A DNA stretch of 6,769 nucleotides from a virus. Taxonomy: Duplodnaviria; Heunggongvirae; Uroviricota; Caudoviricetes. Where the stretch lies: the IMG/VR virus record IMGVR_UViG_2617270964_000002; one strand, written 5' to 3'. Below are positions 1,099 through 6,769 of this stretch, piece by piece (within the stretch, counting starts at the first letter, position 1; each line of letters begins with the position of its first letter). The notes under the pieces are model-generated. The model had not been told where the DNA came from. It saw nothing but the letters and a program-made list of their open reading frames with translations, and searched no databases. A program made the translations under genes and the position numbers.

Positions 1099-1121
1099 GG
1101 AAGAGCAGGAGAGCAAAACAG

Positions 1122-1589
1122 ATGCTTAAGACAAACAGTCTGCGAGAGTCCATGCTTCATGGGTGTCGGTGGTGCCAGGCTAATCCCGAGAAATTCACCA
1201 TTTTCGTGGAGAGCGGCAACATTGAAACGACCGGGGAAGCGCCCTCGTTTGTTTACCGCTATCAGATGGTGATGTTTGTCATGGATTACGCCGGAGAGCT
1301 GGACGACCTCACGCTGCCGCTGCTGGCGTGGTTATCCGAAAATCAGCCACAGTTGTTGCTCAACCCTGAGCGTAATCAGGACATCAAATTCTCCGCCGTT
1401 ATCAATGACGATGACAGCGCCGATCTCCTGTTTACGCTCCCCCTGCGGGAACGCGTTCGCGTCACGCGCAGCAGTCAGGGCACACCGCAGGCAGAACACC
1501 TGCCGGAGCCAAAACCCCGCCTGCCATCTTCCGAAGGCGACTGGTCGCATATATTCCAGGATGTGACGTGGGGTGAAAGCGATGGATAA
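1122..1589 (+). CDS. R: Tail completion protein, P2 gpR-like
   Basis: 155-aa ORF; ATG at 1122 preceded by AGGAGAG (1107-1113). Translation (MLKTNSLRE...PLLAWLSENQPQLL...) resembles remembered P2 gpR in length and motifs, and it sits directly upstream of the S homologue. Confidence 0.8.
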   Translation: MLKTNSLRESMLHGCRWCQANPEKFTIFVESGNIETTGEAPSFVYRYQMVMFVMDYAGELDDLTLPLLAWLSENQPQLLLNPERNQDIKFSAVINDDDSADLLFTLPLRERVRVTRSSQGTPQAEHLPEPKPRLPSSEGDWSHIFQDVTWGESDG

Positions 1590-2217
1590 GGCATTCACCC
1601 GCGTGGATGAAACCTTTGAGACCATCCGCGACAGCCTGAATCAGCAGGCCATCAATAACATCGCCAGAAAGCTGGCACAGGATTTACGTCGCGCCCAGCA
1701 GGCACGTATCCGGTCACAGAAAGCGCCGGACGGGACCGCATGGACACCACGCAGACGCCGCGTAACCCGGATACAGGAGCGCATTCGCTTTATCTGGAAT
1801 AACGAAGCACGCACGCTGAAAAACTGGCATCACGACACGGGGAAATACGGGCGAACCATTACCGGGTGGGATGAGGATAAAAACAGCATCCGCACGTTTT
1901 ACCGGGATGACATCGACCGTTTTCTGGAAATACGCACCCGGCGCATCAACCAGGACAGCACAAAGCGCGTCCCCATGTTCGTAAAACTGCGCACCGCCCG
2001 CTACCTGAAAGCCCGTGCAGATGCCTCCGGTGTGACGGTGGGTTACAGCGGCGTGGCCGCACGTATTGCACGCGTTCATCAGTTCGGTGAGCGCGATCAG
2101 GTTGCGCCGGGCATTTTCACCGATTACCCGGTACGTGAGCTGCTGGGTATCAGCCAGGCAGATGAGCGCCTGATTTATAACACGGTGCTGGGCCGGATTG
2201 CGGAGGCTGTACGGTGA
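1582..2217 (+). CDS. S: Tail completion / virion morphogenesis protein, P2 gpS-like
   Basis: ORF in frame from GTG 1573; I prefer ATG 1582 (MDKAFTRVDE...), which overlaps the R stop (1587-1589). Translation has motifs I recall from gpS-family proteins (PRRRRV, KLRTARYL, ARIARVHQFG). Start codon choice is uncertain by 9 nt. Confidence 0.8.
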   Translation: MDKAFTRVDETFETIRDSLNQQAINNIARKLAQDLRRAQQARIRSQKAPDGTAWTPRRRRVTRIQERIRFIWNNEARTLKNWHHDTGKYGRTITGWDEDKNSIRTFYRDDIDRFLEIRTRRINQDSTKRVPMFVKLRTARYLKARADASGVTVGYSGVAARIARVHQFGERDQVAPGIFTDYPVRELLGISQADERLIYNTVLGRIAEAVR

Positions 2218-2795
2218 GCGCAGAACTCATGCGACTGCTGAGCAACATCATCCGCACCGGGATCATCTCTGAAGTTGATGAGAAGTCCTGGCGCGTGCGC
2301 GTTCGCAGCGGCGAACTGGAAACAGGCTGGTTGCGCTGGAACACCACGCGCGCGGGAGCCTTCAATGTGTGGCTGCCGCCATCACCAGGCGAACAGGTGG
2401 TAATTGTCTGCATTGGCGGCAACCCGGAAACCGCCATGATAATTGGCAGCCTGTGGAGTGATGCCAGTCCGGCCCCCGGCAAAAGCCTGAAAGAAATCGT
2501 GGTCAGCGCGCCGGATGGCGCGGTGTTCCGCTACGACGCAGACGCTGGCGCACTGAGCGCCAGCGGCATGAAAACAGCCACCCTGCAGGCATCCGTCAGC
2601 GTGACACTGGATACGCCCGTCGTGGAATGCACAAACCTTCTGAGAACAGCGACGCTTGACGTCACAAAAGGGGGAAAGATGAGCGGCAATATCACGCACA
2701 GCGGCGGCAATTTCACCTCAAACGGTATCACAGTGCATACGCATAAACACGGTGGCGTTAAAGGTGGCAGCGATTCGACAGGAGGCCCGCAGTGA
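2214..2795 (+). CDS. V: Baseplate assembly protein V (central spike), P2 gpV-like
   Basis: GTG start at 2214 overlaps the S stop TGA (2215-2217) as GTGA; GGAGG lies 8 nt upstream. Translation (IIRTGIISEVD..., GEQVVIVCIGG..., VECTNLL..., VHTHKHGG) parallels remembered P2 gpV, including the C-terminal His-x-His-x-His motif. Confidence 0.88.
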   Translation: MSAELMRLLSNIIRTGIISEVDEKSWRVRVRSGELETGWLRWNTTRAGAFNVWLPPSPGEQVVIVCIGGNPETAMIIGSLWSDASPAPGKSLKEIVVSAPDGAVFRYDADAGALSASGMKTATLQASVSVTLDTPVVECTNLLRTATLDVTKGGKMSGNITHSGGNFTSNGITVHTHKHGGVKGGSDSTGGPQ

Positions 2796-3142
2796 CAACC
2801 CGCTACACAGGAATGAATCCGGACGGGACGGGAAACCTGAACGATACGGAGCACCTGAAACAGTCAGTCAGGGACATCCTGACCACCCCGCTGGCCAGCC
2901 GGGTTATGCGACGGGAATATGGCAGCCTTGTACCTGATTTGATTGACGAACCCATGAATAACACCACGCGTCTGCAATGCATGAGTGCTGCCGTGATTGC
3001 GCTGACACGATGGGAACCCCGCATTGCCCTGGACGCCATCGACGTTGTCTGGAAGGCAGGAGGCCGCGCCGGGGTGACGCTGTCGGGCACTGTCATGCAG
3101 ACCATGCAGAATGTTGAGTTAACCATCACGCTGAGGGAGTAA
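2792..3142 (+). CDS. W: Baseplate wedge protein W (GPW/gp25 family, related to T4 gp25 and T6SS TssE)
   Basis: GTG start at 2792 overlaps the V stop (2793-2795); AGGAGG at 2779-2784. N-terminus MTTRYTGMN... closely matches my memory of P2 gpW (MTARYLGMN...); internal RVMRREYGS motif; 116 aa. Confidence 0.9.
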   Translation: MTTRYTGMNPDGTGNLNDTEHLKQSVRDILTTPLASRVMRREYGSLVPDLIDEPMNNTTRLQCMSAAVIALTRWEPRIALDAIDVVWKAGGRAGVTLSGTVMQTMQNVELTITLRE

Positions 3143-3145
3143 ATC

Positions 3146-4042
3146 ATGCCTGCTGTTGACCTTTCCCAGTTACCGGAACCCGCCATCATCGCGGAGCCTG
3201 ATTTTGAGGCAATTCTGGCTGACACAAAGGCCATGATGATTGCGTCCTATCCTGCCGAACAGCGTGAAGCCGTCTCCGCCGCGCTGGAGCTGGAATCGGA
3301 ACCCCTGAACGTTATCGCTCAAACCATGTCTTTTCGTGAAATGCTGTTACGCCAGCGGGTTAACGAGGGCGCACGCGCCTGCATGTTAAGCCACGGTTCA
3401 GGGACAAATCTGGACAACCTCGCGGGCAATATGAACACAAAGCGCCTGGTTATCACTCCGGCAACGGATACCACCGACGCGGTGATGGAGAGCGACACCT
3501 CGCTGAGATTGCGGGCGCAGCGGGCGTACGACGGCCTGAGTGTTGCTGGCCCGTCAGGTGCATACGAGTATTTTGCCCGCAGCGCCAGCGGTCTGGTGCG
3601 CGATGCGCGGGCTATCAGTCCGTCTCCGGCCTGTGTGACGGTTTCCATCCTGTCCACTGAAGGAGACGGCACAGCAACGGAGGCGTTGCTTAATACCGTT
3701 CGCGCCGTTCTGAATGCAGAGGATACCCGCCCGGTGGCCGACCGCCTTACTGTACAGAGCGCCAGAATCGTGACATGGCGGCTGAATGCAAAACTGTACT
3801 TTTACCCCGGCCCGGAATCCGAACCTATTCTGGCCGCGGCGGAATCGTCATTCAGGAAGTGGCTGGCTGAACAGGGGCTTATCGGTCAGGACGTGGCGTT
3901 GTCCGCCATTGCTGCCGCACTTCATGTGCACGGCGTGCAACGCGTGGAGATAATCGAACCCACACAGAATATGGCCATCAGCGACATACAGGCGGCGCGC
4001 TGTGAGTCATTTACCATCAGCGAAGGTGGGCGCAATGAGTAA
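3146..4042 (+). CDS. J: Baseplate assembly protein J (T4 gp6 / TssF-like)
   Basis: ATG 3146 with GGGAG 7 nt upstream; 298 aa. Translation (MPAVDLSQLPEP..., ESEPL..., RPVADRLTVQSA..., HVHGVQRVE) tracks remembered P2 gpJ along its length. Confidence 0.9.
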   Translation: MPAVDLSQLPEPAIIAEPDFEAILADTKAMMIASYPAEQREAVSAALELESEPLNVIAQTMSFREMLLRQRVNEGARACMLSHGSGTNLDNLAGNMNTKRLVITPATDTTDAVMESDTSLRLRAQRAYDGLSVAGPSGAYEYFARSASGLVRDARAISPSPACVTVSILSTEGDGTATEALLNTVRAVLNAEDTRPVADRLTVQSARIVTWRLNAKLYFYPGPESEPILAAAESSFRKWLAEQGLIGQDVALSAIAAALHVHGVQRVEIIEPTQNMAISDIQAARCESFTISEGGRNE

Positions 4043-4643
4043 TTCACTGTTACCGCCATCAGCCAGCAGTTTCATGCGTTGTGCCGAAGCCGTCGGAACA
4101 CGCATTACAGACATTCCGGTAGACCTCAATACGCTGTGGTCGCCGGATACCTGCCCGGTGCATCTGCTGCCTTATCTCGCCTGGGCGTTTTCCGTTGACC
4201 GCTGGGATCGCAACTGGCCGGAAGAGACAAAGCGACAGGTAATTCGTGATGCATGGCTGATACACCGACACAAAGGGACCATCAGCGCACTGCGAAGAGC
4301 CGTGGAGCCTCTCGGCTACCTGATTGAAGTAAAGGAGTGGTGGCAACTCAACGAGGAGCCAGGAACATTTCGCATTGTTGTCGGAGTACTTGATCAGGGC
4401 ATCACCGATGAAATGTATCAGGAACTTGAGCGCCTTGTTGCGGATGCAAAACCAGTAAGTCGCCATCTGACGGGGCTGGCGATCAGCCTGAGTGTGAACG
4501 GAAAGATTTTCGTTGGTACGGGATGCTATCACGGCGATGCCCTGACGGTTTATCCCTACACCCCGGAGTCCATTATTGTCGAAGGGGATTATTTCCCTGC
4601 CCCGGCCATTCATTTAATTGATAATCTGAGAGTAAACGCATGA
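4035..4643 (+). CDS. I: Baseplate/tail protein I (TssG-like)
   Basis: ORF opens at 4002 but the likely start is ATG 4035 (MSNSLLP...), overlapping the J stop at 4040-4042. The motif LLPYLAWAFSVDRWD and HRHKGTISALRR match the gpI family as I remember it. Confidence 0.88.
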   Translation: MSNSLLPPSASSFMRCAEAVGTRITDIPVDLNTLWSPDTCPVHLLPYLAWAFSVDRWDRNWPEETKRQVIRDAWLIHRHKGTISALRRAVEPLGYLIEVKEWWQLNEEPGTFRIVVGVLDQGITDEMYQELERLVADAKPVSRHLTGLAISLSVNGKIFVGTGCYHGDALTVYPYTPESIIVEGDYFPAPAIHLIDNLRVNA

Positions 4644-6238
4644 CAGTGAAATACTACGCCATTCTGACTAATCAGGGCGCAGCACGACTGGCTAACGCGA
4701 CGATGCTCGGCAGTAAGCTGAATCTGACGCAAATGGCCGTTGGTGATGCAAATGGTGTGTTACCAACACCAGACCCTGCACAAACAAAACTGATTAACCA
4801 GAAACGCATTGCACCGCTGAATCTTCTGAGTGTTGACCCTAACAATCAGAGCCAGATTATTGCGGAGCAAATCATCCCTGAAAACGAGGGAGGATTCTGG
4901 ATCCGTGAGATTGGTCTTTATGATGATGAAGGTGTACTCATTGCGGTGGCAAACTGCCCGGAAACGTACAAACCGCAGTTGCAGGAAGGCAGTGGACGCA
5001 CCCAGACTATCCGCATGATTCTGGTTGTCACGAACACCGAAGCCATCACGCTGAAAATCGACCCGTCTGTGGTTCTGGCAACCCGCAAATATGTGGATGA
5101 TAAAATCTCAGAGCACGAACAGTCACGACGTCACCCGGACGCCTCGCTGACCGCAAAAGGTTTTACTCAGTTAAGCAGTGCAATTAACAGTGAATCAGAA
5201 ACACTGGCCGCAACACCGAAAGCAGTTAAGGCTGCATATGACCTGGCTGACGGGAAATATACCGCCCAGAACGCCACCACAACACAAAAAGGGATTGTTC
5301 AGCTCAGTAGCGCCACGAACAGCACGTCTGAAACGCTGGCAGCGACACCAAAAGCTGTTAAGGCGGTAATGGATGAAACGAGCAAGAAAGCACCATTAAA
5401 CAGCCCGGCACTGACCGGAACGCCAACAACACCAACAGCGCCACAGGGGACTAATAGTACCCAGATCGCAAGCACGGCTTTCGTTATGGCCGCGATTGCC
5501 GCACTTGTAGATTCGTCACCTGATGCACTGAACACGCTGAACGAACTGGCTGCGGCGCTGGGCAATGACCCGAATTTTGCGACCACCATGACTAACGCGC
5601 TTGCGGGTAAGCAACCGAAGGATGCCACCCTGACGGCGCTGGCGGAGCTTGCTACATCAGCAGATAAACTCCCATATTTTACAGGAGCAGATCGTGCCGC
5701 GTTAACCGCGTTGACAAGTGTTGGACGTGCCATTCTTGGTAAAACCAGCACTCAGGGAGTTCTTGATTACCTTCATTTGGAAGAAACGGTAAAACAGGCC
5801 GCTGGAGCGATGCAGAAAAGTGCAAACGGTGGTGATATTCAGAATGTGGCCGCTTTCAGAAATGCCCTTCAGCTTGGTACGGCGGCACTGGCCTCTATGG
5901 GAGTGGGAAAAAATCAGGTATTGAGTGCATCAGATTTCTCTTTCTTCGCCGGTGGAAATGGCTATTTGTATATTCCTTGTCTTGCAACCACAGATAATCC
6001 GGTAAAGATAATGCTGCAGTGGGGAACCATACGGACACGCGGCGGAGAGAATAATATCTACAACCTGCCCTATGCATTTCCAACCGCAGGTCTGTGGGCT
6101 ATGGGATGCAGAGCAGCGAATGGCTACAGCCAGTCAATGAATGTCAGTATAGAAAATCGGTCTCAAATCAGGATCCAAAACTGGGCGCCAGCAGGGGCGG
6201 TAGAAGATTGCTGTTTCTTCGCTGTGGGGTATTTATGA
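4640..6238 (+). CDS. H: Tail fiber protein H: conserved P2 gpH-like N-terminal shaft (approx. aa 1-375) fused to a shorter, AT-richer C-terminal distal domain
   Basis: ATG 4640 overlaps the I stop as ATGA. 532 aa. N-terminus (MTVKYYAILTNQGAARLA...MAVGD...GGFWIREIGLYDDEGVLIAVAN...) and the repeated LSSA(T/I)NS(T/E)SETLAATPKAVKA motif are hallmarks of P2 H / Mu S-type tail fibers. The C-terminal part of roughly 150 aa has no resemblance I recognise, as expected for a receptor-binding tip. Confidence 0.9.
   Translation: MTVKYYAILTNQGAARLANATMLGSKLNLTQMAVGDANGVLPTPDPAQTKLINQKRIAPLNLLSVDPNNQSQIIAEQIIPENEGGFWIREIGLYDDEGVLIAVANCPETYKPQLQEGSGRTQTIRMILVVTNTEAITLKIDPSVVLATRKYVDDKISEHEQSRRHPDASLTAKGFTQLSSAINSESETLAATPKAVKAAYDLADGKYTAQNATTTQKGIVQLSSATNSTSETLAATPKAVKAVMDETSKKAPLNSPALTGTPTTPTAPQGTNSTQIASTAFVMAAIAALVDSSPDALNTLNELAAALGNDPNFATTMTNALAGKQPKDATLTALAELATSADKLPYFTGADRAALTALTSVGRAILGKTSTQGVLDYLHLEETVKQAAGAMQKSANGGDIQNVAAFRNALQLGTAALASMGVGKNQVLSASDFSFFAGGNGYLYIPCLATTDNPVKIMLQWGTIRTRGGENNIYNLPYAFPTAGLWAMGCRAANGYSQSMNVSIENRSQIRIQNWAPAGAVEDCCFFAVGYL
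5156..5368 (+). repeat. Tandem intragenic repeat inside H: two 27-aa cores (KGFTQLSSAINSESETLAATPKAVKAA and KGIVQLSSATNSTSETLAATPKAVKAV) spaced 132 bp apart
   Basis: Read directly from sequence: cores at 5156-5236 and 5288-5368, 22/27 aa identical, with many synonymous codon differences (e.g. tta agc agt vs ctc agt agc for LSS). Confidence 0.85.
5760..5785. other. Candidate Hin/Gin/Cin/Pin-type invertase crossover site (26 bp imperfect dyad TTCTTGATTACC-TT-CATTTGGAAGAA); speculative
   Basis: TTCTT-N16-AAGAA dyad of the same length and outer sequence as the hix/gix consensus (TTCTTGAAAACC-AA-GGTTTTTGATAA as I recall it). It lies at the point in H where the conserved shaft ends and composition drops. 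The partner site would lie outside the window, so it cannot be confirmed here. Confidence 0.25.
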
Positions 6239-6651
6239 ATAAATTTTATCAGGGTGTTTTTTATCCGGAAGCACTTAAAGATGCCTATGTTTCTGCCGGA
6301 ACGTGGCCGGAACATGCTGCCGATGTGAGTGATGAGGCAATGGCTGTTTATAGCCAGTACCCACCGGAAGGGAAAATGCTGGGAACGGATAATAATGGTT
6401 ATCCTGTGTGGGTTGACATCCCCTCCCTGTCGCCTGAAGAACGAGTTGCCCGGGCTGAGCAAACACGACGTGATTTACGTACGCGGGCGGATTCTGAAAT
6501 AGCCTGGCGACAGGATGCTGTTGACGCGGATATCGCGACGGATGAGGAAACCGCCGCGTTGTCTGAGTGGAAGAAGTACCGGGTACTGTTAATGCGGGTT
6601 GATACAGCAAAACCCGTATGGCCTACACCTCCGGGGGAACAGGCCAGTTAA
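6235..6651 (+). CDS. tfa: Tail fiber assembly protein (Tfa; P2 gpG / Mu U-like chaperone)
   Basis: ATG 6235 overlaps the H stop (6236-6238) as ATGA; 138 aa. C-terminus carries the Tfa signature (DEETAALSEWKKYRVLLMRVDTAKPVWPTPP), comparable to the ...W..Y.VL..RVD...P.WP ending of remembered gpG. The listed ORF start at 6094 is an out-of-frame overlap with H and is not used. Confidence 0.8.
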   Translation: MNKFYQGVFYPEALKDAYVSAGTWPEHAADVSDEAMAVYSQYPPEGKMLGTDNNGYPVWVDIPSLSPEERVARAEQTRRDLRTRADSEIAWRQDAVDADIATDEETAALSEWKKYRVLLMRVDTAKPVWPTPPGEQAS

Positions 6652-6769
6652 TATGCTCAGGGTTGGTTGTCACATCAACCGCCTTAACTTCATTCTTATA
6701 CGCCAGCCATGCCGACAGTTTAGCTCTGTTGGTGTCGCTGATTTCATCCAGCATTAGTTCCGTTCGCCA
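6623..6769 (-). CDS. Partial CDS (C-terminal 48 aa plus stop) of a second, inverted tail fiber assembly protein (tfa'); N-terminus lies beyond the right edge
   Basis: Only one - strand frame is open across 6769..6626, stop TAG at 6625-6623. Translation ...LMLDEISDTNRAKLSAWLAYKNEVKAVDVTTNPEHINWPVPPEV* has the same Tfa C-terminal signature (DE..., L.AW..YK, VD, WP.PP) as the + strand tfa. The two genes converge and overlap by 29 bp (6623-6651). Confidence 0.6.
   Translation of the reverse strand, partial: WRTELMLDEISDTNRAKLSAWLAYKNEVKAVDVTTNPEHINWPVPPEV

Follow-up and report, generated by a model that had tools for sequence, protein, structure and literature searches.

A probable Din-type crossover site at the shaft-tip junction of the tail-fibre gene H in a P2-like Escherichia coli prophage

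The stretch of DNA analysed here, referred to as the window, is the whole of contig JHDG01000044.1 from assembly GCA_000601135.1 (6769 bp). It is filled by the late tail and baseplate genes of a P2-like prophage, and towards its end lies the tail-fibre gene H, in which a first-pass annotation of the sequence had marked a 26-bp motif as a candidate crossover site for a DNA invertase. This motif is very probably a crossover site of the Din type, part of a tail-fibre switch that is still complete in this P2-like prophage of E. coli.

The fibre gene H and its 26-bp site

The features of the window are collected in Table 1. The H open reading frame (ORF) is intact, and the tip that it encodes at present, tip A, is the one expressed in the window. 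In several complete genomes, H is annotated as a broken pseudogene. Two convergent cassettes with Caudo_TAP domains can be seen, the first consisting of tip A and tfaA (5774-6651, plus strand) and the second represented by the 3' end of tfaB on the minus strand, the tip B that belongs to it lying past the contig end. The tfaB fragment has a translation that ends in …NWPVPPEV*, which is the same as the C-terminus of the 140-aa tfaB product of the complete module described below, and tfaB is the chaperone of the silent alternative tip B. At their 3' ends, tfaA and tfaB share 29 bp (6623-6651) in a tail-to-tail overlap. Profiles from NCBIfam gave no match over their cut-offs for recombinases, H or Tfa, and it was Pfam and a PDB sequence search that proved informative.

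Table 1. Features of the window, with positions counted from its first base
Feature	Positions	Strand	Remarks
DUF6645 ORF, 365 aa	1-1098		runs from contig start
Homologues of P2 R, S, V, W, J and I	between DUF6645 ORF and H		
H, tail-fibre gene, 532 aa	4640-6238	+	intact ORF
Constant part of H, residues 1-378 (collar domain, fibre repeats, shaft)	4640-5773	+	Pfam Phage_tail_fib, Phage_fiber_2
Probable 26-bp crossover site, Din family (Gin/Pin/Cin/Min-type)	5760-5785	+	sequence, position-weight matrix, homology switch at centre
Outer half-site, constant, shaft-side, TTCTTGATTACC	5760-5771	+	same half in L003-L010, EPEC L025 and p15B mixQ''R'
Core dinucleotide TT (AA on opposite strand), presumed point of staggered cleavage and strand exchange	5772-5773	+	
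Inner half-site, variable, tip-side, CATTTGGAAGAA	5774-5785	+	divergent, 3 changes from the usual GGTTTGGGAGAA
Tip A, variable C-terminal 154 residues of H (HLEETVKQ…AVGYL), stop codon included	5774-6238	+	Gp53-like_C domain
tfaA, tail-fibre assembly chaperone cognate to tip A, 138 aa	6235-6651	+	Pfam Caudo_TAP, E=2.8e-32
tfaB, 3' part, last 48 codons and stop, convergent, cut by contig end	6623-6769	-	Caudo_TAP, E=2.7e-9

The 26-mer TTCTTGATTACCTTCATTTGGAAGAA was found with the sequence and at the position first proposed. It can be read as TTCTTGATTACC-TT-CATTTGGAAGAA and is in frame within H, where it encodes (V)LDYLHLEE (…VLDYL|HLEE…), the central TT supplying bases 2-3 of codon Leu378. The tip had also been described as richer in A+T than the shaft, and this is borne out by the G+C content, which is about 0.55-0.57 ahead of the 26-mer and about 0.47-0.49 past it.

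The layout of the motif is that of the family as tabulated in PMC3241671 (Table 3), namely two imperfectly symmetric 12-bp halves around a 2-bp core, and AA, as read on the opposite strand here, is the core of the hix, cix, pix and mix sites (PMC3241671). A loose dyad of the form TTCT-N18-AGAA occurs once in the window, against an expectation of 0.04. A position-weight matrix was made from 19 distinct half-sites taken from the published hix, gix, cix, pix, mix and bix sites (PMC3241671, Table 3). With this matrix the 26-mer scored 19.6 bits, while the runner-up in the window reached 4.3 bits and the best of 300 shuffles 17.1 bits, so that none of the 300 scored as high. Proven sites score between 16.8 and 32.0 bits on the same matrix, which places the 26-mer at the low end, near hixR. 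The match of the half-sites to the family consensus (TTC/TTA…AAAC) is above chance, and it is unevenly divided: the outer half contributes 11.8 bits and the inner half 7.8 bits, compared with 15.1 bits for the usual inner half GGTTTGGGAGAA. The moderate consensus match of the inner half, which had been pointed out at the start, thus stands. When mixQ''R', which holds an identical outer half, was left out of the matrix, the 26-mer fell to 15.5 bits; it was still the top match of the window, and two of 200 shuffles reached that score.

These last two results, the moderate inner half and the two shuffles in 200, are what can be said for a chance dyad, that is, an imperfect palindrome that coding sequence happens to contain. 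Against it, nothing else in the window matches nearly as well, and above all there are the comparisons set out in the next section: two independent homology relationships switch exactly at the 26-mer, and the same position is the experimentally mapped end of an inversion in enteropathogenic E. coli (EPEC). The comparative data effectively refute this explanation, and its probability is negligible.

A second element, TTCTTGGTAAAACC, had been described as half-site-like and is indeed present at 5733-5746, where it turned out not to be a site. It is 14 nt long rather than 12 and has no dyad partner; the matrix gave it about -10 bits when taken as a full site and no more than 2.4 bits as a half. 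All relatives conserve it as coding sequence (AILGKT) and no homology boundary falls there, so it lies outside the switch system. Neither an inverted copy of the 26-mer nor one of its inner half was found within the window, which is to be expected, since the partner would fall past the contig end.

Two homologies that meet at the central TT

When complete E. coli genomes were searched with an 801-bp query (window 5000-5800), 138 of them gave a match covering at least 80% of the query. Among the matches listed (40 of 138), identity ranged from 97.5 to 99.6%, and the matches stopped no more than about 15 bp past the 26-mer. Seven relatives were read, namely ES4, CEC08123, O157:H7 BB24-1, FRIK944, Z885, RM19259 and TOE17 (L003-L005, L007-L010), and all are gene-for-gene syntenic with the window, with 94-100% identity per 100-bp block over 1200-5699. 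The closest is TOE17, with 99-100% per block over 1100-5699 except for six blocks (94-98%). In the block that contains the site, identity goes down to 92-93% in the seven relatives (92% in TOE17). Identity with TOE17 is unbroken through 5773, and the constant part of H is 99-100% identical to that of the TOE17 and ES4 prophages up to the core. Conservation among H homologues thus breaks exactly at the central TT, in agreement with the shaft-tip boundary that had been proposed.

At the same position in H, each of the seven relatives carries the site TTCTTGATTACC-TT-GGTTTGGGAGAA, and past it follow, in every case, a tfa gene, a convergent tfa', an orphan tip ORF, a second site and a recombinase gene. 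The recombinase-proximal site of these relatives is TTCTCCCAAACC-AA-CGTTTAAGAAAA, which is inverted, has the same core dinucleotide and lies 1.8-1.9 kb from the site in H. The partner expected for the 26-mer of the window, in inverted orientation, would be TTCTCCCAAACCAACGTTTAAGAAAA, or TTCTCCCAAACCAACGTTTA[AT]GAAAA as a pattern. The recombinase of the seven relatives has 199 aa (182-199 aa over all loci) and its gene starts about 55 bp past the partner site; the protein has the domains Resolvase and HTH_7, and that of TOE17 matches Mu Gin (PDB 4m6f) over residues 1-187 with E=1e-91. The claim of an invertase-type site is therefore upheld, as a Din-type site by the matrix and through an outer half that is the same as in mixQ''R' and in relatives that have both a partner site and a Gin-like invertase. 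Two of these relatives show the two states of the switch. In O157:H7 BB24-1 and FRIK944 (L005 and L007) the flanks have no mismatches, and the 1910-bp segment from core to core is an exact reverse complement, again with no mismatches. The pair are natural inversion isomers, with the breakpoint at the core of the outer half-site.

Some observations on the syntenic relatives concern other parts of the window. The number of Phage_fiber_2 repeats in the shaft is variable (window 5150-5420; P0001; H of L003, L005 and L008-L010). At the other end of the window, the slot of the DUF6645 gene holds a holin, an M15 endolysin, DUF2570 and LysC in most of the syntenic relatives, and among those examined the DUF6645 gene is shared only with TOE17 (L010).

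The inversion of such a segment has been observed by experiment. Goldberg et al. (2014) reported an inversion in a P2-like prophage of EPEC O127:H6 E2348/69, which was detected by paired-end sequencing and confirmed by polymerase chain reaction (PMC4272514, Table S1). The prophage belongs to the same lineage as that of the window: its shaft is identical at 1093 of 1102 positions (99.2%), and it shares its gpI and gpU protein accessions with the syntenic relatives of the window. It also has the same outer half TTCTTGATTACC and TT core at the same codon of H, with a 199-aa Gin-like recombinase downstream. The core of the EPEC site in H, at 1891695-1891696, coincides with the reported start of the inversion (locus NC_011601.1 1891695-1893703). 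More generally, the top three matrix matches in the EPEC locus (cores at 1891695, 1892134 and 1893695; L025 2184-4209) are the reported ends of two overlapping inversions. The middle one of these sites, AGCATGAAAACG-TT-GGTTTGGGGGAA, has a very poor outer half and is used nonetheless.

To the right of the TT, the window has a different set of relatives. From 5772 to the contig end it matches, at 99.9% identity, a segment of E. coli ET846 that lies in a different myovirus backbone and starts at the TT of TTATAAAAAAGG-TT-CATTTGGAAGAA, about 60 bp upstream of the gene for a 182-aa serine recombinase. A look-up of the exact TfaA protein returned 154 blocks of a public assembly collection, from which ten loci were read (L013-L022). 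The exact TfaA was always found within the same module, which consists of tip A, tfaA, a convergent tfaB and tip B (L013-L022 positions 4540-6342). Both ends are kept in nine of the ten loci, where the top two matrix matches are the ends of one segment that measures 1803 bp from core to core. An invertible segment of about 1.8 kb, similar in size to e14 P, had been suggested from the window, and the loci with the same cassette agree with that estimate. Between the core and the contig end, the window is identical to the module at 995 of 996 positions.

The module occurs in two states. The active state, in which CATTTGGAAGAA and tip A are fused to a fibre gene, was seen in L014, L015, L020, L021 and L022, with the outer halves TTCTCACATACC, TTCTCGCATACC and TTCTCAAATACC and, in a Mu-like phage (L022), CTCTCGAAAACC, which is the outer half of e14 pixL. 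In the silent state, tip A is an orphan ORF beside the recombinase gene, as in L013, L018, ET846 and Apirhabdus; among the ten loci, the outer half at the silent position is TTTTCTTAAACG, and the opposite end of the segment then has the reciprocal combination. Comparison of L014 (active) with L013 (silent) showed a segment that is identical at 1803 of 1803 positions in opposite orientation, with H-side flanks that are 99.6% identical. Among natural isomers, the inner half is thus found in both positions (L014 and L020 versus L013 and L018). The inner half is polymorphic within one module type, as L019 (4526-4551) has GGTTTGGGAGAA instead of CATTTGGAAGAA in a module that is otherwise 99.4% identical.

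Two wider scans for this cassette gave one match each. A scan of representative genomes for the start of the cassette found it in Apirhabdus apintestini, in the silent state and with a further outer half at its TT-CATTTGGAAGAA junction. The metagenome scan found it in a 1.35-kb contig (L011, OGYT01019791.1) with yet another outer half, TTCTATCAAAGG-TT, and no recombinase in view. In this contig (L011 1-271), short ORFs precede the tip A cassette, with no recombinase or long fibre gene among them, and the C-terminus of the tfa product differs; L011 may be part of a multi-cassette array.

Nine different outer halves in all abut the inner half CATTTGGAAGAA exactly at the TT. At least five backbones carry the module with 99.9-100% identity: those of three P2-like lineages, of a Mu-like phage and of the ET846-type myovirus. 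Identity of the flanks drops, at or near the cores, to at most 70% towards the fibre gene and to 60-79% towards the recombinase gene. This pattern suggests exchange of whole cassettes bounded by crossover sites. It is a tentative proposal, somewhat short of an even chance, that the module is a mobile cassette passed between unrelated prophages by invertase-catalysed exchange at the two cores, and that the H gene of the window would be a recent product of such an exchange. If so, this would amount to recombinase-mediated cassette exchange occurring in nature. In their work on Cin and Min, Arber, Sandmeier and Iida are said to have regarded crossover sites as docking points for new tips, in addition to their part in flip-flop switching. 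The finding of an identical 1.8-kb module in several unrelated backbones, bounded by crossover sites, supports the docking-point idea. It was also reported by Arber's group that Cin rarely uses secondary crossover sites (PMC4270481).

Judged by these two sets of alignments, the junction in the window is a hybrid, which takes its outer half and core from a shaft of the TOE17/EPEC type and its inner half from the circulating tip module. Because a half from the shaft lineage is joined to a half from the tip module, the junction itself is very probably the product of an exchange at the core. Another way to arrive at the same arrangement is homologous or illegitimate recombination between fibre genes, with the conserved stretch that encodes YLGLGE as a favoured mosaic boundary and the likeness to a crossover site as incidental. 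Tail-fibre genes are well-known mosaics, and the sequence just upstream, …KLPYFTG…GR.ILGK…, is conserved as protein in fibres of the P2, Mu-like and ET846 types, so that homologous exchange could take place there; moreover, the recombinase-side flanks are similar enough between backbones that the boundary on that side can be placed only to about 20 bp. On the fibre side, however, the boundary is exact to the 2-bp core, and the nine outer halves share only scattered bases, a homology too short for RecA-dependent exchange. The TT is also the position at which a serine invertase cuts, and reciprocal products of exchange at the core exist. Recombination of this kind is therefore considered very unlikely.

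The switch as it would operate in the window

Serine invertases such as Hin and Gin cut at the core of their sites with a 2-nt stagger, and the Fis-dependent recombinational enhancer of the family usually lies in cis, in the 5' part of the invertase gene. Applied to the window, an invertase dimer would bind the two 12-bp half-sites, and the 26-mer would pair with a second site in inverted orientation, located about 1.8 kb further downstream and just ahead of the invertase gene. Both sites would then be cut at the central TT/AA with a 2-nt stagger, after which one pair of half-sites would rotate by 180 degrees and the ends would be religated. The resulting inversion would replace H residues 379-532 (tip A) and tfaA by tip B and tfaB. 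Such an exchange of tips would switch receptor specificity, and the window would represent the 'tip A on' state.

The outcome was simulated by letting the identical module supply the missing 807 bp. The simulated inversion yielded an in-frame H of 553 aa, followed by the 140-aa TfaB. Tip B has 175 aa in this product and starts with GLGEAAKSRVLQ… (GLGEAAK…), and the last 48 residues of TfaB are encoded at 6626-6769 on the minus strand of the window. Both orientations thus give a complete H ORF, of 532 aa now and of 553 aa after the simulated inversion.

Inversion is shown for each half-site separately, for the outer half by natural isomers and by the EPEC experiment, and for the inner half by natural isomers. 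With each half-site binding one recombinase subunit, the combination of half-sites found in the window would be active as well. From the syntenic relatives and the module we infer that this prophage has retained the partner site and the invertase. All features of the family that can be assessed within the window are present.

Several points weigh against a complete switch. The contig stops in tfaB, about 800 bp short of the expected partner, which leaves both the partner site and the invertase gene outside the window. The inner half CATTTGGAAGAA is weak, and TG beside the core occurs in no published site. The viral contig collection does not contain the 23-bp junction TTGATTACCTTCATTTGGAAGAA, which is the 26-mer minus its first three bases, and no other protein in a collection of 5.8 billion proteins joins this shaft to this tip. 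A homology search with the full H protein likewise did not find the same shaft with the same tip, the best match, P0001, having the common GLGE-type tip. Since the junction and the pairing of shaft and tip are unique in the collections searched, the combination in the window has no isomer with which it could be compared. The shaft of P0001 has an additional copy of a 45-aa repeat and is otherwise identical to that of the window.

It is also a fact that good sites can be relics. The H gene of P2 has a site of 21.1 bits and neither an invertase nor a second tip, and L017 has lost the rest of the switch and holds the same cassette as the window, fixed in a P2-like H. The 26-mer might accordingly be a frozen relic, the scar of a past gain of a tip by invertase-mediated or other recombination, in which H and tip A have become fixed and the motif now merely encodes VLDYLHLEE. 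The gix-like site of P2 lies at the same codons of a fibre gene with a single tip, and the weakness of the inner half and the end of the contig ahead of any visible partner fit this explanation too. Against it, the window, unlike P2, keeps the convergent tfaB, the next gene of the module, at 99.9% identity. In a vestigial arrangement of the P2 type, a single tip and a single tfa gene would be followed by unrelated genes, and what follows tfaA directly in the window is a convergent second tfa. In addition, all seven syntenic relatives that were examined, as well as EPEC, have a partner site and an invertase. Such segments are also open to inversion in trans by Pin-family enzymes that other resident prophages encode (PMC12529663). 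A frozen relic is thus unlikely, and a complete switch is still the favoured reading of the 26-mer.

In L017 itself (5418-6045), tip A and tfaA are fused to a P2-like H, and tfaB, tip B, the recombinase gene and the sheath and tube genes are not there; the locus has lost the recombinase-side end of the segment. As for the contig break at 6769, it more likely results from a repeat shared with the tfa gene of another prophage. Heterogeneity due to inversion was considered as its cause and is unlikely, as the break falls in the middle of the segment, in tfaB, and away from any crossover site.

Significance and relation to known switches

The analysis fixes the cut-and-rejoin point of the tail fibre of this prophage to the base pair and predicts a second receptor-binding tip (175 aa, GLGEAAK…), which is useful for predicting host range. 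It also bears on annotation: where such loci show a broken H gene or an orphan 'phage tail protein' ORF, these are parts of a switch and not junk. The switch may also account for the fragmentation of short-read assemblies at this place. The e14 segment, when inverted by the Pin enzyme of another prophage, gives a fibre chimera that blocks T2 adsorption (PMC12529663). Because of this effect of the e14 chimera, such switches may affect the phage resistance of the host, too.

The type of mechanism is already known and has been shown by experiment in the EPEC sister prophage, whereas the unique combination of shaft and tip and the divergent inner half-site are new. The EPEC locus is the nearest described relative of the switch in the window. 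It differs in its inner half, GGTTTGGGGGAA, in its tips and in being a three-site shufflon with four variants; the window, for its part, has the inner half CATTTGGAAGAA and a tip module that was not found elsewhere on this backbone.

The P segment of e14 in E. coli K-12 (pixL/pixR, PinE) is similar: its 26-bp sites have an AA core, and the segment, of about 1.8 kb, holds alternative C-termini of stf together with two tfa genes in convergent orientation. The length of the e14 segment is given as 1797 bp in PMC12529663. The recombinase-proximal site of the syntenic relatives is one base off pixR, and the site of L021 is identical to it; the outer half of pixL, CTCTCGAAAACC, is used by the Mu-like locus L022. 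However, e14 is a lambdoid cryptic element and not P2-like, its shaft and tips are different, and the inner half in the window is non-canonical.

The G segment of Mu (gix/Gin) and the C segment of P1 (cix/Cin) share with the window the joining of a constant fibre to alternative variable parts, each with its cognate chaperone (S/U versus S'/U'), as well as the placing of one site in the fibre ORF and the second just upstream of the invertase gene. Mu Gin is close to the recombinase of the relatives, as the E-value given above indicates. Yet gix has a GA core, the repeats are long and perfect, and the G segment is about 3 kb in length, whereas the system of the window has an AA/TT core, two inner halves that are not identical and a 1.8-kb segment.

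In the Min system of p15B, the site mixQ''R' (TTCCCCCAAACC-AA-GGTAATCAAGAA) contains the exact outer half of the window and is one base away from the site in H of the relatives. Min sites with poorly matched halves still function. The system differs in that it belongs to a plasmid prophage and has six sites with many cassettes, whereas the switch in the window is expected to have two sites.

The shaft of phage P2 H is homologous to that of the window, and at the same codon position (…EYLGLQE…) it has the dyad TTATCGAATATC-TC-GGTTTACAGGAA, the inner half of which is that of gix. The P2 dyad lies at L023 558-583 (NC_001895.1 13857-13882) and covers the codons VIEYLGLQE. The 26-mer of P2 H is a relic gix-like crossover site: P2 has one tip and one tfa gene (G), followed by a terminator and fun(Z), and no invertase. 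The window, in contrast, has a convergent second tfa gene and belongs to a lineage with invertases.

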